Positions 45,342-51,431 of a stretch of DNA of 64,000 bases are shown here, piece after piece. Source of the stretch: Allosphingosinicella sp. (GTDB lineage: Bacteria; Pseudomonadota; Alphaproteobacteria; Sphingomonadales; Sphingomonadaceae); assembly GCA_035942355.1 (NCBI GenBank), contig DASZDE010000073.1, positions 8,773 to 72,772 of the forward strand. The letters run 5' to 3'. The notes below the pieces were generated by a model. It ran no database searches and was not told the DNA's origin. It worked only from the letters and a program-made list of their open reading frames with translations. The position numbers were made by a program, and so were the translations under genes. How positions within the stretch are numbered: the first letter of the stretch is position 1; the number at the start of each line of letters is the position of its first letter.

Positions 45342-45887
45342 TCATTTTGCTTCCTGCCCGAAGCCGGGGCCGCTCTGCAAAGACAAGTCTATCTGCTGGC
45401 CTCCCGGCTCCGCATGAAGCCGGTAGAGGCTGACCGGCGCGCCACCAGGCGCCGCCCATGTCCAGGACAGGCTGGTCCCTTTCGAGCTGGCGGTTGGCGC
45501 GCTCCCCAACTGACGAGCCAGCATGGCCTCTACGGAGGCTCGAAGCGCTTGCTCATCCACGGCGCCGCGCGTCAAAGTCGTCAAATTACATTGTGGCAGC
45601 GGAAGAGCGCTCTGCCCGGGTATCCGACGAATATAATTGAGTTCGCCGTGCACCGAGGACCAATTCGAGCGGAAGCCCTCCAGAGTCGCGGCTTCGCTTC
45701 GATAGCCCCACGCTGACGCTTTCAATGCTTCCTGCAACGCAGCCAGGCTCTGCAGCCCCGTGAAGCAAATTTTCTCAAATTCCGCGACCGCTTCTTCCTC
45801 GGTCACCGGCACTAAACGAATTTGCGCCGGTGTGCGTCCATCCGAAAGGCTCTGCTGCAGCAGCAACGTAAGAAGCAGGAAATTCAC
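45342..45887 (-). CDS. Hypothetical secreted protein between scpA and pccA
   Basis: GTGA overlap with the scpA stop; hydrophobic N-terminus; visibly less GC-rich codons. Confidence 0.55.
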
Positions 45888-48205
45888 TCCGCCGCTTCCT
45901 CGAGCGGCGGCATGTTGTGGCCGAGCAGCTTGAGCACTTCGCCGGCCGCGTCGACCAGGTTGGTGCCGGGGCCGAAGATCGCCTGGACGCCCGCTTCGCG
46001 GAGCATGTCGTAATCCTGGGCGGGGATGACTCCGCCGACGACGACCTTGATGTCGGGCCGGCCCATGGCGCGGAGACGGCCGATCAGCTCGGGCACCAGC
46101 GTCTTGTGCCCGGCGGCGAGGCTGGAGGCGCCGACCATGTCGACGCCACGCTCGACGGCGAGGCGAGCGCTTTCCTCCGGAGTCTGGAACAGCGGCCCCG
46201 GCACGACTTCGAAGCCAAGATCGGCGAAGGCGGAGGCGACCAGGTTGGCGCCGCGGTCGTGGCCGTCCTGGCCCATCTTGGCGACCAGCATGCGCGGCTT
46301 GCGTCCGAGCCGACGGCCGATGGCCTCGACCCCCTGCTCGGCACGCTGCCAGCGCGGGTCGCCGCGATAGGCGCCGCCATAGATGCCGCTGACCGGCTGC
46401 GGGACGGTGTCGTAGCGGCCCCAGGCCTCCTCCAGCGCCAGGCTGATCTCGCCGAGCGTGGCGCGCGCGCGGGCGGCCTCAACCGCGAGAGCGAGGAGGT
46501 TCGTCTCCACCAACCGTTCGGGCTGAGCTTGTCGAAGCCCTTCACTTCCCTCCCGTTCGGCAGAAGAAAAGGAAGGCCCTTCGACAGGCTCAGGGCGAAC
46601 GGGTGAGCTGGCCGCTTCACGCAACGCGGCCAATGCGGCACGCGTGAGCGCTTCGTTCCTTTCCGCCCGGACCTTTTCGATCCGAGAGATCTGGCCCGAT
46701 CTCACCTTGTCGTTGTCGATCTGGAGGATGTCGTGATGCGCCTCCTCCTCGAGCCGGTAACGGTTGACGCCGACGATCACCGTCTCGCCCCGGTCGACTG
46801 CTGCGGCGCGGGCGGCGCTGGCTTCCTCGATCCGGCGCTTGGGCATGCCGTCGGCCACCGCCTTCGTCATGCCGCCCATCGCCTCGACTTCCTCGATCAG
46901 CGCCCACGCCTGGTCGGCGAGCGCCTGGGTCAGGGCCTCCACATAATAGGAGCCGCCGAGCGGGTCGGCGACGTTGGCGATGCCGGTCTCCTCGGCCAGC
47001 ACCAGCTGTGTGTTGCGCGCGATGCGGGCGGAGAAGTCGGTCGGCAGCGCGATCGCCTCGTCGAAGCTGTTGGTGTGGAGCGACTGCGTCCCGCCCAGCA
47101 CGGCCGCCATGGCTTCCACCGTGGTGCGGATGATGTTGTTATAGGGGTCCTGCTCGGTCAGCGAAACGCCTGAGGTCTGGCAGTGGGTGCGCAGCATCGT
47201 CGACTTCGTATTCTTCGTGCCGAAGCCGTCCATGATCCGGTGCCACAACAAACGCGCGGCCCGGAGTTTGGCGACCTCCATGAAGAAGTTCATGCCGATC
47301 CCGAAGAAAAAGGAGAGGCGCGGCGCGAACGCGTCCACGTCGAGCCCCTTCGCCAAAGCGGTGCGGACATATTCCATGCCGTCGGCGAGCGTGAAGGCGA
47401 GCTCCTGCACCGCCGTCGCGCCCGCTTCCTGCATATGGTAGCCGCTGATCGAGATCGAGTTGAACTTCGGCATGTTGGCCGAAGTGTAGGCGATGATGTC
47501 GGCGACGATCCGCATCGAGGGTTCGGGCGGATAGATGTAGGTGTTGCGGACCGCGAACTCCTTCAAAATGTCGTTCTGGATGGTGCCGGTCAGCTGCGCC
47601 TGCGCGACTCCCTGCTCCTCGGCGGCGACAATGTAGAAAGCGAGCACCGGCAGCACCGCGCCGTTCATCGTCATCGACACCGACATCTCGCCCAGGGGAA
47701 TGCCGTCGAACAGGATCTTCATGTCGTCGAGCGTGTCGATCGCGACGCCCGCCTTGCCGACGTCGCCGGCCACGCGGGGATGATCGGAATCGTAGCCGCG
47801 ATGGGTGGCGAGGTCGAACGCGACCGACAGGCCCTTCTGCCCGGCGGCGAGGTTGCGGCGATAGAAAGCGTTCGAATCCTCGGCGGTGGAGAAGCCGGCA
47901 TATTGGCGGATCGTCCAGGGCCGGCCGGTATACATCGAGGCGTAGGGCCCGCGGGTGAACGGTGCGAAGCCCGGGAGACCGGGTTCGAGATCCGCGGTAT
48001 CCTCGGCGGTGTAGAGCGGTTTGACCGCAAGGCCCTCGGGCGTGTGCCAGCTGAGGTCCTTGCCCTTCACTTCCCTGGCGGCGGCGGCTTGCCAGTCGGC
48101 GAGGGTCGGCCGCGCGGGCGCGGGATCGGAGGGGCGCCTCTGTACCGGCGCTGCACCGGAATCTTCGCCTCTATTCTGTTCGATCGTCGGCTTGTCAGAC
48201 ATCAC
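45884..48205 (-). CDS. scpA: Methylmalonyl-CoA mutase with repeat-derived insertion
   Basis: [46 protein letters not shown]12-binding [10 protein letters not shown]. Confidence 0.97.
46514..46602. repeat. Palindromic RPE-like element, family B, inside scpA
   Basis: CCGTTCGGGCTGAGCTTGTCGAAGCC ... CCCTTCGACAGGCTCAGGGCGAACGG; arms nearly identical to 48210-48294. Confidence 0.9.
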
Positions 48206-48209
48206 ACAC

Positions 48210-48294
48210 CCGTTCGGGCTGAGCCCGTCGAAGCCCTGCCCTTCTCTTGCCGCCTAGGTGAAGGACAGCCCTTCGACAAGCTCAGGGCGAACGG
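48210..48294. repeat. Palindromic RPE-like element, family B, intergenic mce-scpA
   Basis: CCGTTCGGGCTGAGCCCGTCGAAGCCC ... CCCTTCGACAAGCTCAGGGCGAACGG. Confidence 0.9.
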
Positions 48295-48308
48295 AGCGGG
48301 TAGAGCGC

Positions 48309-48728
48309 TCAGTGCCCTTCCTTCGGGCTCTCCATCAACTCGACAAGAACGCCGCCCGTATCCTTTGGGTGCACGAACAGCACCGGAGTGCCGTGCGCGC
48401 CGATGCGCGGTTCGCCCAGCACCCGCGCGCCCTTCGCCTCCATTTCCGCTTTGGCCGCATGGATGTCCGGCACCTCGAAGCAGACATGATGCTGCCCGCC
48501 CGCCGGGTTCTTCTCGAGGAACCTGGCGATCGGCGAATCCTCGCCGAGCGGCTCCAGCAGCTCGATCTGGCTGTTCGGCGTATCGACGAAGCATACCCGC
48601 ACCTTCTGCGCCGGCAGGTCGAACGGCTCCCCGATCGCGGTCGCCCCGAGCAGGTCGCGATAGAGGGCGATGCTCTGCTCGATCGACGGCGTCGCCACCC
48701 CAACATGGTTGATGCGGCCAAGCGTCAT
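48309..48728 (-). CDS. mce: Methylmalonyl-CoA epimerase
   Basis: GRINHVGVAT, QIELLEPL, GGQHHVCFEV, FVHPKDTGGVLVEL. Confidence 0.95.
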   Translation of the reverse strand: MTLGRINHVGVATPSIEQSIALYRDLLGATAIGEPFDLPAQKVRVCFVDTPNSQIELLEPLGEDSPIARFLEKNPAGGQHHVCFEVPDIHAAKAEMEAKGARVLGEPRIGAHGTPVLFVHPKDTGGVLVELMESPKEGH

Positions 48729-48922
48729 TGAAGGGTCGCCTCAGTGATGCGCAATTCGACCTCGGCACAGGCGACGTCCAACTCGTGTTCGGCGATTAGC
48801 TCCTCTGTCACGTCACGCAGGAACGCGCTCAGAGACTGACCGCGCTTGGCAGCCTTCGCTTTCCATTCCGCCTTCACCTCGGCGGGAACGGAGAAGCGGA
48901 CACGCTCCGTATATCGGGCCAT
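48725..48922 (-). CDS. Small ribbon-helix-helix (CopG/MobC-like) protein
   Basis: RVRFSVPAEVKAEWKAKAAKRGQSLSAFLR; ATGA overlap with mce. Confidence 0.65.
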   Translation of the reverse strand: MARYTERVRFSVPAEVKAEWKAKAAKRGQSLSAFLRDVTEELIAEHELDVACAEVELRITEATLQ

Positions 48923-48925
48923 CTT

Positions 48926-49144
48926 CTAATCCCTTGGCAAGGCGCGGCGCGCGCGCGCGTCGGCTCTCGCCTCGTCTACGATGGTTTCAATCCGCACGAG
49001 CCTTTCGCTTACTTTCGCGATCGCCTCGCGCAACCCCGCGATGTCGCGGTCTTGACGTTCCAAGCTCTGCCCAAGCCGTTCGATATTCGACTGCATGAGG
49101 ATTATGTTCTTAAGCGCGCTCGCGGCATCGCCCAAGACGCTCAC
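48926..49144 (-). CDS. 72-aa coiled-coil hypothetical protein
   Basis: GTGA overlap with the upstream RHH gene; heptad pattern IERLGQSLERQDRDIAGLREAI...RLVRIETIV. Confidence 0.6.
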   Translation of the reverse strand: MSVLGDAASALKNIILMQSNIERLGQSLERQDRDIAGLREAIAKVSERLVRIETIVDEARADARARRALPRD

Positions 49145-49425
49145 GGGCGAACGCCCATCCGCTTCAAGAAGGCGTCGGTCTCGCTATGAGACCTGTCGAG
49201 CGTCTCCAGCATCCGGTCCAGGGAGGCGCGCATTTTGGGTATCGCTTCGTTCGCCTCTCTGACGAGCGCGGCGAGTTCGGCCTCCTCCTCCGCCGTGATG
49301 CGCTCCTCGTCGTTGACGATCTGACGGACATATTCGCTGCTCGACACGCCGCGATGGGCGGCACGCGCCTCCCATTCAGCCTTCTCATCCTCTTTGAGCA
49401 GCACGGTAAGCCTCGCAGTGCGCAT
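49141..49425 (-). CDS. RHH protein with acidic/coiled-coil C-terminal extension
   Basis: RLTVLLKEDEKAEWEARAAHRGVSSSEYVRQ; AAGGAG RBS. Confidence 0.7.
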   Translation of the reverse strand: MRTARLTVLLKEDEKAEWEARAAHRGVSSSEYVRQIVNDEERITAEEEAELAALVREANEAIPKMRASLDRMLETLDRSHSETDAFLKRMGVRP

Positions 49426-49438
49426 CGCTCGTTCTCCT

Positions 49439-49476
49439 TACAATGCGATTATAATGCTAAGCTCACGCCTGCTCAA
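49439..49476 (-). promoter_or_regulatory. sigma70 promoter with overlapping direct-repeat operator
   Basis: TTGAGC-N17-TATAAT on the minus strand; GCATTATA and GCATTGTA repeats 11 bp apart over the -10 region and start site. Confidence 0.7.
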
Positions 49477-49715
49477 GGTCGGTCAGCGATACCGAACATA
49501 AGGTCCAGCGAAATGAAGATCATGGTAGCGGCGCTCGCGATGTAGAAGAGGAGCAGCACCCGGAACGCGCCCGGACGCTCGTGCTGGAGAACATACGTGC
49601 GGCCGATCGGCAGCCTTCGCTCGCGCCGGGCGCGCTGAATGATCCACATGATCCACGGCACCGCCGCGAAGGTGATCAGGCCGACCAGCATGTCCTCAGA
49701 GCGGAGCGATGTCAT
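49473..49715 (-). CDS. Small two-TM membrane protein
   Basis: Two hydrophobic helices; ATGA overlap with the upstream ORF. Confidence 0.5.
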   Translation of the reverse strand: MTSLRSEDMLVGLITFAAVPWIMWIIQRARRERRLPIGRTYVLQHERPGAFRVLLLFYIASAATMIFISLDLMFGIADRP

Positions 49716-49918
49716 ACGCCTAAAATGCAAGAGATCAGTAGTAGGCTTTCGACGGCGATCACTAGTCCGAAGGTCCACTTAAGGTTAACGATCCTGTCGT
49801 CGTACGCTCTGCAGTAAACGCAATGTGTTGCAAACGCCTCGTTCGTGGTGCGTCCGCAGTGAAAGCACTCTTTTCCCCATTTATCGAGCAGGTCCCGATC
49901 AGAGCGGAATGTTGTCAT
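49712..49918 (-). CDS. Small CxxC-CxxC protein with C-terminal TM helix
   Basis: CFHC...CVYC then [19 protein letters not shown]; start overlaps the pccB 3' end and is uncertain. Confidence 0.45.
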
Positions 49919-51431
49919 GCTTCTTCCACGGGTTTTCGAGCTGCTTGTCGCGGAGCTTGCGCAGGCCGAGAGCGATGCGGCGGCGCGTGGAATGCGGCAT
50001 GATGACATCGTCGATGAAGCCCATGCTGGCGGCGACGAAGGGGTTGGCGAAGCGCTCCTCATATTCGGCGGTGCGGGCGGCGATCTTGTCGGGGTCGCCT
50101 ATGTCCTTGCGGAAGATGATCTCGACGGCGCCCGTGGCGCCCATCACGGCGATCTCGGCCGAGGGCCACGCATAATTGAGGTCGCCACGGAGGTGCTTGG
50201 AGGACATGACGTCATAGGCGCCGCCATAGGCCTTGCGGGTGATGATCGTGATCTTGGGCACGGTCGCCTCGGCGAAGGCGAACAGCAATTTGGCGCCGTT
50301 CTTGATGATGCCTTCATGCTCCTGCGCGACGCCGGGGAGGAAGCCGGGCACGTCGACGAAGGTGATGATCGGGATATCGAAGGCGTCGCAGAAGCGGACG
50401 AAGCGGGCGGCCTTTTTCGACGACTTGATGTCGAGCACGCCGGCGAGCACCATCGGCTGGTTGGCGACGATTCCGACGGTGCGGCCTTCGACGCGGCCGA
50501 AGCCGCAGATGATGTTGGCGGCGTGCGCCGGCTGGACCTCAAAGAAGTCGCCCTCGTCGAGCGTCTTCCGGATCAGCTCGTGCATGTCGTAGGGCTTGTT
50601 GGGGCTGTCCGGGATGAGCGTGTCGAGGCTGTCCTCCTGCCGGTCCCATGGGTCCATGGTGGGCCGCGTCGGCACCTCATGGCGGTTCGACAAAGGCAGG
50701 AAATCGAAAAAGTCGCGCGTCGCCAGCAAGGCCTCGACATCGTTCTCGAACGCCACGTCGGCGATCCCCGATTTGGTGGTGTGGGTGACGGCGCCGCCCA
50801 ATTCCTCCTGGCTCACCACCTCGTTGGTGACGGTCTTCACCACGTCGGGCCCGGTGACGAACATGTAGCTCGAATCCTTCACCATGAAGATGAAGTCGGT
50901 CATCGCCGGCGAATAGACTGCGCCGCCCGCGCACGGCCCCATGATCAGGCTGATCTGCGGGATCACGCCCGACGCGAGCACGTTGCGCTGGAACACTTCG
51001 GCATAGCCGGCGAGGCTGGCGACGCCCTCCTGGATGCGGGCCCCGCCCGAATCGTTGAGGCCGATCACCGGCGCCCCCACCTTCATCGCCATGTCCATGA
51101 TCTTGCAGATCTTTTGCGCGTGCCGCTCCGAGAGCGAGCCGCCGAACACGGTGAAATCCTGCGCGAACGCATAGACGAGGCGGCCGTTGATCGTACCGGA
51201 GCCGGTGACGACGCCATCGCCCGGCACCTTCTGCTTCTCCATCCCGAACTCGGCGCAATTATGCTCGACGAACATGTCATATTCTTCGAACGAGGCCTCA
51301 TCGAGCAGCACGTCCAGCCGCTCGCGGGCGGTGAGCCGGCCTTTGGCGTGCTGCGCCGCGATCCGCTGCTCGCCGCCGCCGAGGCGGGCCAGCCGCCGCC
51401 GCTCCTCAAGCTCCTCCATCGTCGTCGCCAT
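49899..51431 (-). CDS. pccB: Propionyl-CoA carboxylase beta (carboxyltransferase) subunit
   Basis: [52 protein letters not shown]. Confidence 0.96.

Follow-up and report, generated by a model that had tools for sequence, protein, structure and literature searches.

A ribbon-helix-helix/coiled-coil gene pair of toxin-antitoxin-like design inside the propionyl-CoA operon of a sphingomonad

Type II toxin-antitoxin (TA) loci with ribbon-helix-helix (RHH) antitoxins, such as KacA-KacT, AtaR-AtaT, TacA-TacT and ParD-ParE, are built from two small overlapping genes, of which the first encodes a DNA-binding protein. In this protein an RHH domain is followed by a helical C-terminal region, operator repeats lie over the promoter, and the loci are patchily distributed, with DNA-binding domains swapped among relatives. 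Here we describe a cassette that has these features in common with type II TA loci. It consists of three small minus-strand genes, RHH94, cc72 and RHH65, which lie between pccB and mce in the propionate-breakdown operon of a soil sphingomonad (Allosphingosinicella sp., contig DASZDE010000073.1; the whole analysed stretch of 64 kb is referred to as the window). With moderate confidence, we propose that the cassette is a self-contained, self-repressed RHH/coiled-coil two-protein module of an undescribed family, to which a third gene has been added in this sub-lineage. Its design is that of a type II TA locus, with a toxic action of cc72 considered less likely than not. RHH-based, self-regulated bicistrons are of a known kind, and what is new here is the partner family and its fixed place in a metabolic operon.

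A further parallel comes from the immI region of phage P22. Here, Mnt combines an RHH domain with a C-terminal helix that builds a tetramer binding two half-sites, while Arc, encoded in the same region, is a short RHH-only protein. RHH94, with its RHH domain, long helix and two boxes 11 bp apart, parallels Mnt, and RHH65, which has the RHH domain only, parallels Arc. The Mnt-type order of an RHH domain and a C-terminal helix is seen in the AlphaFold2 model of RHH94, which may oligomerise in a similar way. In contrast to Mnt and Arc, the cassette is chromosomal and its single-helix partner gene has no counterpart in immI. Neither RHH94 and RHH65 nor any of 59 family members matched an Arc or Mnt family in Pfam.

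The operon itself also has a described relative. In the available parts of one account, a pcc-mce-mutase-pccA cluster with pccR is described for a sphingomonad, and PccR, a member of the ScfR family, is named as regulator of propionyl-CoA assimilation (Carter and Alber 2015, cited in PMC9195938); these parts of PMC9195938 contain no mention of small cassette genes. PccR exerts its action at the pccB promoter and is unrelated to the cassette proteins, with ~460 aa and the domains HTH_3, Peptidase_M78 and ScfRs. In Sphingomonas taxi and Sphingomonas sp. Leaf33 it is encoded divergently from pccB, beside an operon that carries the RHH pair, whereas the pair lies inside the operon with a promoter of its own.

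RHH94 and cc72 form a conserved overlapping gene pair under purifying selection. The two families, which a first-pass annotation of this DNA had placed in one module, co-occur almost without exception. A partner gene was found to end at the cc start in every locus inspected, and by count 44 of 46 cc genes have an overlapping or abutting upstream partner whose end lies no more than a few bases from the cc start; three of the other four were recovered by correcting cc start codons that had been over-extended. Compared with two metagenomic orthologs, all three cassette genes are under purifying selection, with ratios of nonsynonymous to synonymous substitution rates (dN/dS) of 0.09-0.22 (0.09-0.17 for RHH65 and about 0.2 for RHH94 and cc72), values in which dS is partly saturated.

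The AlphaFold2 model of cc72 consists of a single 66-residue helix (residues 3-68; predicted local distance difference test score, pLDDT, 94.3). An exhaustive profile search collected 375 clusters at 50% identity, nearly all of them full-length proteins of 58-85 aa, and a word-indexed search returned 44 clusters, from sphingomonads wherever the source names the organism. The family alignment shows a conserved N-terminus and the motif (K/E)R-L/V-V-R-I-E-T, with R48 the same in all members and R51 and E53 almost invariant. Members fall into two length classes that lie exactly one heptad apart, as expected of a coiled coil. In one public gene call (P0010), cc72 begins at an internal ATG and is only 56 aa long, but the N-terminus conserved in the family speaks for the GTG start and a length of 72 aa.

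The first-pass annotation had found no RelE, PIN, MazF, HicA or GNAT signature in this protein. Likewise, Pfam, NCBIfam, PADLOC and PHROGs yielded no family for it, also when 100 members were scanned singly. These scans returned sub-threshold coiled-coil noise (SlyX, XhlA and P10), and SlyX (PF04102) was rejected at 17 bits against a cut-off of 30, with weak matches in only 13 of the 100 members. A profile search of the PDB retrieved generic coiled coils only, and the ESM Atlas offered only unnamed clusters, with no named cluster above 0.84. A possible origin of cc72 as a copy of the RHH protein's tail was also discarded, as profile-profile comparison with the RHH family gave no homology. In the literature, no paper describing the RHH/cc pair or DUF6468 was found. 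With no paper, profile or solved structure found for them, the cc family and the pair are undescribed. The cc profile also weakly matched (E ~1e-4) the C-terminal coiled coil of a 133-aa protein in one genome (G066; L037:1465-1866, minus strand) that has an apparent membrane segment and neighbours which, by eye, resemble a prophage lysis/tail region. This match is taken as coiled-coil likeness, and the protein is not counted as a family member.

RHH94 was modelled from a 59-sequence alignment with a mean pLDDT of 88.4. The model comprises an N-terminal strand region, two helices (residues 12-24 and 29-38) and an uninterrupted helix from residue 45 to 90. The RHH assignment of the first-pass annotation is borne out, but the acidic tail that it described is not: the acidic stretch forms the linker and the start of the long helix (residues ~40-62), and the tail ends basic. 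When the model was compared with the PDB by Foldseek, the nearest structures were the RHH antitoxins KacA and AtaR, matched weakly (E 0.28-0.4), with no match under E 0.28; an N-terminal fragment of NikA was also among the fold matches. The RHH antitoxin KacA makes direct contact with its toxin and controls the operon (PMC6698736). The word-indexed search returned 112 homolog clusters for RHH94, again from sphingomonads wherever an organism is named.

The pair is sparsely distributed. The cc profile matched in 27 of 301 sampled Sphingomonadaceae genomes, covering 21 of 112 genera, and within the genus a single-protein query matched in two of 36 other genomes. Elsewhere in the class the family is rare: a sample of about 400 other alphaproteobacterial genomes yielded three strong matches, all with the two-gene layout. 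One lineage accounts for about two thirds of all copies and resides at the pcc/mce/mcm cluster, where the pair almost always occupies the interval from pccB to mce. Typically, pccB is followed by an RHH gene (93-101 aa), a cc gene (69-77 aa) and mce, and the cc stop overlaps the mce start. This arrangement occurs in Sphingomonas sp. SUN039, Sphingomonas sp. Leaf33, Sphingomonas taxi, a Sphingopyxis metagenome-assembled genome and 17 further genomes. Coupling to mce is tight in at least 14 genomes; among relatives, the gene whose start is overlapped by the cc stop is either mce or a thiolase gene.

In a maximum-likelihood tree of partner plus cc, the label 'pcc' needs two changes, compared with 10.4 in shuffles, and a clade with 88/94 support unites eleven of the twelve copies found at other places. 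The apparent escapee, L025, actually lies just upstream of pccA, and all 26 pcc-labelled rows together with L025 make up one lineage tied to the pcc/mce/mcm cluster. This is an old lineage that has long been fixed at the cluster in many genera, and not a chance insertion. Copies of the other lineage occupy unrelated places, always co-directional with their neighbours. They are found flanked by a pair of acyl-CoA dehydrogenase genes, in an ABC (ATP-binding cassette) transporter locus with the permease gene on one side and the ATPase gene on the other, between an aldehyde dehydrogenase gene and pyrD, and after lepA, aroB or queG.

The pair carries a conserved sigma-70-type promoter, the -10 and start region of which are covered by two boxes one helical turn apart (Table 1). 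Both the near-consensus promoter TTGAGC-N17-TATAAT and the repeats 11 bp apart over it had been noted in the first-pass annotation, and both stand. It is the sole promoter-like site in 48000-50200, where shuffles give an expectation of 0.5, and its -35 hexamer overlaps the stop codon of the upstream membrane open reading frame (ORF). Box 1, GCATTATAA (49457-49449), covers the -10 hexamer, and box 2, GCATTGTAA (49446-49438), extends into the ribosome-binding site. The 8-mer CATTRTAA occurs only at these two sites in the window, against 0.19 expected, and the double box is unique in the 3.25-Mb genome assembly. A check for RNA data sets that contain the window listed none; the one data set containing it in full is a biocrust metagenome, from which this DNA may itself derive.

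In the pcc lineage, the common layout is TTGNNN, 16-17 nt and a TATAAT-like hexamer within a nearly invariant first box, (A/G)CATTATAA. The second box is either a direct copy (CATTGTAA or CATGATAA) or an inverted copy (TTATAATG) and is directly followed by AAGGAG, which is present in nearly all orthologous loci. A strict pattern of this layout matched at the same position in 20 of 27 related loci; most of the remaining ones show it by eye, with a one-base difference in the -10 or a mis-anchoring by the script. This AT-rich block has been kept across genera and the surrounding spacer has not, and promoter and operator are better conserved than the cassette proteins. The initial description of a self-promoted module of uncharacterised proteins is supported. 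Consistent with a near-invariant first box, the RHH strand residues R5, T7 and L9 vary hardly or not at all. At the equivalent place, the other lineage has palindromes or repeats of its own.

Across the family, the helical C-terminal region of the partner is constant (profile positions 42-83) and its DNA-binding domain is variable. Most copies have an RHH domain, and no recognisable DNA-binding domain was found in the partner at L019. The source genome itself contains a second, distant copy, which follows lepA on a different contig (C62; L005:1486-2081, minus strand). Here the partner, a protein of 135 aa that overlaps a 63-aa cc protein, has the same helical C-terminal region behind a MazE/AbrB-type N-terminal domain that replaces RHH. 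A similar boundary emerges from 25 pairs of the pcc lineage, in which cc divergence tracks that of the partner's C-terminal helix (r 0.55, permutation p ~2e-4; partial r 0.54 given the RHH domain) and not that of its RHH domain (r 0.11, p 0.12). The RHH domain and the C-terminal helix of the partner are uncorrelated (r 0.08). Since the RHH domain is equally adjacent to the helix, this points to a boundary that separates the DNA-binding domain from a unit of helix plus cc, which matches the domain swaps between RHH and MazE/AbrB. Co-folding of RHH94 residues 40-94 with cc72, for which alignments were used, gave a score of 0.14 against a mark of 0.32 and is not used either way.

RHH65, the third gene, starts three bases after the cc72 stop, and its own stop overlaps the mce ATG (ATGA). 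It is matched by the RHH-family profile A4 (E 1.8e-6) over profile positions 3-60, which identifies it as a truncated paralog lacking the long helix. The motif KAEW.A.AA.RG.S.S is common to RHH94 and RHH65. These observations uphold the earlier call of a second RHH paralog coupled to mce. PHROG 'Arc-like repressor' matches are weak (E ~0.009). RHH65 has 10 homolog clusters (69-100% identity), and wherever context is available its homologs occur only in the arrangement RHH9x - cc72 - RHH65 - mce. The three-gene form is thus a conserved trait of this sub-lineage and not of the whole family. Of the two- or three-component module first envisaged, the two-gene core remains; the three genes are not a conserved unit of the family.

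Taken together, we propose the following mechanism. RHH94 would bind both boxes as a dimer of dimers and thereby repress its own promoter. Its 46-residue C-terminal helix would pair with cc72, and this pairing may set the oligomeric state or DNA affinity of the repressor and restrain cc72. As the genome has no other double box, the output of the module could, in lineages without a downstream gene, only be cc72. The effector of the module would therefore be cc72, probably a non-enzymatic one that acts by binding a cellular protein. RHH65, with a DNA-binding domain and no long helix, probably either serves as a further repressor, competes for related DNA or is a mixed-dimer partner of RHH94. In the pcc lineage, the promoter may double as an internal, self-limiting promoter for mce-mcm-pccA: the last cassette gene is translationally coupled to mce, so that the promoter can feed these genes, as the first-pass annotation had suggested.

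This proposal describes a coherent small-protein family of 375 clusters that annotation resources leave unnamed, and a TA-style module that in many genera has kept a single place within a central metabolic operon. Should cc72 have a cellular target, it would represent a new type of small effector that works by binding. Should mce-mcm-pccA depend on the promoter, it would add a second layer of control beside PccR to the catabolism of propionate, valine and odd-chain fatty acids in these sphingomonads. Since the cultured strains Sphingomonas taxi, Sphingomonas sp. Leaf33 and Sphingomonas sp. SUN039 carry the pair, these ideas are directly testable.

Several points weigh against the proposed self-repressed module. 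The presumed effector cc72 matches no known effector or toxin. The co-divergence of helix and cc72 could arise in part from the adjacency of their DNA. Operator class and RHH subclass co-vary only partially and not cleanly, and we do not use this co-variation as evidence. Finally, roughly half of the copies that lie outside the pcc cluster lack a co-directional gene downstream, which means that the internal-promoter role is not the general function of the family.

The closest competitor is a true type II TA system, in which cc72 is a new non-enzymatic toxin that arrests growth by binding an essential target, RHH94 is both antitoxin and autorepressor, and the locus persists by addiction or has a role in stress response or phage defence. 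The adjacent, co-directional, overlapping small genes with the DNA-binding protein first would fit this explanation, as would, at the level of sequence, an antitoxin-type DNA-binding protein with an operator over its own promoter. The exchange of antitoxin-type domains, the patchy distribution within family and genus, the two unrelated copies in some genomes and a divergence of the pair that is faster than that of the flanking genes point in the same direction, and other TA-like pairs occur in the operon of relatives (VapBC and, by eye, a likely DUF4160/DUF2442 pair). The partner, however, is an uninterrupted helix without a globular fold, unlike any known type II toxin, be it GNAT, ParE/RelE, PIN or another fold, and PADLOC gave no match. 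Searches of 72,556 plasmids and 50,697 phages returned neither RHH94 nor cc72; a short-form relative as query gave two weak matches, both on megaplasmids of the sphingomonad Polymorphobacter. For a purely selfish module, it would also be unusual that one lineage has kept its position in a metabolic operon, and its coupling to mce, across many genera. We therefore do not call the cassette a TA system, given that cc72 lacks a toxin-like fold, that no plasmid or phage copies were found and that one lineage has long been fixed in position. Of the TA layout initially recognised, gene order and operator hold up at the level of sequence. That cc72 stops growth is a tentative suggestion that we rate below the module itself, and a true TA system is, in our view, somewhat less likely still. 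Equally doubtful is the far-reaching version of these ideas, in which cc72 founds a new type II effector/toxin class, a single-helix coiled coil that acts purely by target binding and is restrained by the long helix of a modular RHH/AbrB repressor, and in which one lineage was domesticated in sphingomonads as a lasting, self-limiting internal promoter that gates the methylmalonyl-CoA branch (mce-mcm-pccA) and spreads by recombination with mce.

Alternatively, the pair might be a pathway-specific regulator, which would respond to a metabolic or cofactor signal and, next to PccR, control expression of mce-mcm-pccA from the internal promoter. We consider this improbable. The lineage of 26 pcc rows and L025 is tied to the cluster and tightly coupled to mce, some copies of the other lineage also lie in acyl-CoA dehydrogenase operons, and the only ScfR/PccR-type regulator of the source genome is found on another contig, away from pccB. 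Yet neither protein has a ligand-binding domain, 91% of the sampled Sphingomonadaceae genomes run the same operon without the pair, S. taxi and Leaf33 carry both PccR beside pccB and the pair, and related pairs occur in unrelated contexts such as after lepA or aroB, inside an ABC transporter operon or before pyrD.

The module reading also has to be set against a remnant of plasmid or integrative conjugative element (ICE) mobilisation, in which RHH94 would be a relaxosome accessory protein similar to NikA or MobC. RHH94 reaches the Pfam NikA-like family (PF21983) with 28.5 bits, just above the cut-off of 27, 36 of 59 family members match it at E up to 0.01, and a homolog is sometimes labelled 'plasmid mobilization protein' in public annotation. 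This match covers the generic RHH domain only; all other matches of RHH94 are to RHH families as well (RHH_1, RHH_9 and ParD, below their cut-offs), while the long C-terminal helix and the cc72 partner are absent from the NikA/MobC family. No relaxase, oriT-like site or transfer gene lies near any of ~45 loci, where the neighbours are pccB, mce and other housekeeping genes, and there was no homolog on the plasmids searched. The gene context contradicts a mobilisation remnant, which we regard as very improbable, and the label is a mislabelling. Omega-epsilon-zeta, TraC/TraD and NepR were likewise rejected, with no zeta toxin, relaxase or sigma factor gene nearby and none of these families among the Pfam matches. 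That the genes are chance ORFs in a GC-rich spacer next to a chance promoter match, both of which are common in such DNA, is refuted by hundreds of full-length homologs, the dN/dS values, the confident fold models and the conservation of promoter and boxes, and is given practically no credence.

On the minus strand, the cassette is preceded by pccB and a small membrane ORF and followed by mce, the mutase gene, a 181-aa ORF and pccA (Table 1). The pccB gene shares 80-90% identity with the Carboxyl_trans genes that flank the pair in other genomes. No terminator-like sites were found in 48000-50200. The 181-aa ORF matched no Pfam or NCBIfam family. The membrane ORF also had no family match, and is matched by tblastn in most pccB-mce intervals of the same genus. 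Conserved throughout the genus, it lies outside the module and has the look of an operon member that annotation has missed. Its relatives of 80-87 aa frequently overlap the end of pccB and abut mce.

Table 1. Genes and sites of the cassette and its operon. Positions refer to the window.
Feature	Position	Strand	Basis
pccB, propionyl-CoA carboxylase beta subunit, upstream operon gene	49899..51431	-	gene map
Small membrane ORF (101 aa) between pccB and cassette	49473..49778	-	tblastn
Sigma-70-like promoter (-35 TTGAGC, 49476-49471; 17-nt spacer; -10 TATAAT, 49453-49448)	49448..49476	-	10/12 consensus matches
Presumed operator, two 9-bp boxes 11 bp apart	49438..49457	-	sequence repeats
Ribosome-binding site AAGGAG, 8 nt ahead of RHH94 ATG	49434..49439	-	sequence
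RHH94, RHH domain (residues ~1-38) and 46-residue C-terminal helix (45-90)	49141..49425	-	Pfam, AlphaFold2
cc72, 72-aa single-helix coiled-coil protein, GTG start overlapping RHH94 stop (GTGA)	48926..49144	-	AlphaFold2
RHH65, truncated RHH94-family paralog, DNA-binding domain and linker only	48725..48922	-	RHH-family profile A4
mce, methylmalonyl-CoA epimerase, downstream gene coupled to cassette	48309..48728	-	TIGR03081 equivalog, E 1.6e-45
mcm, single-chain methylmalonyl-CoA mutase	48205-45884	-	gene map
181-aa ORF between mutase and pccA, overlapping mutase stop	45342-45887	-	gene map
pccA	45304-43328	-	gene map

The junction between pccB and mce is a cargo hotspot. Within the genus, the interval ranges from about 50 bp to >1.4 kb with varied cargo (loci L044-L072). 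In one genome (G009) the pair precedes a NUDIX gene and the membrane ORF, whereas in the source genome it follows the membrane ORF. The closest three-gene relative has a 48-codon copy of the mce 5' end directly upstream of the promoter (L079:1175-1318), and two other loci carry shorter pieces of this end ahead of the pair (37 codons at L016:1077-1187 and 29 codons at L038:2032-2118). The position of these scar-like fragments directly upstream of the RHH promoter suggests that the cassette has spread together with the mce start, by recombination at the conserved junction.

Apart from the cassette, partial duplicates of the mce 5' end are present in several genomes (L051 and L056). By eye, the cargo of the junction includes the small membrane ORF, SHOCT-type membrane proteins (~320 aa), a NUDIX gene, a GIY-YIG gene, and ORFs that resemble lipoproteins or immunity proteins. 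In two relatives, a VapB/VapC pair (PSK_trans_fac plus PIN; L007:9756-10234 and L011:9355-9995) lies between the mutase or a radical-SAM (BATS) gene and pccA, which means that the propionyl-CoA operon hosts other small two-gene modules too. Just upstream of pccA in another genome (G108; L025:1747-2248), the RHH/cc pair is followed by two small genes that, by eye, resemble a DUF4160/DUF2442 pair.

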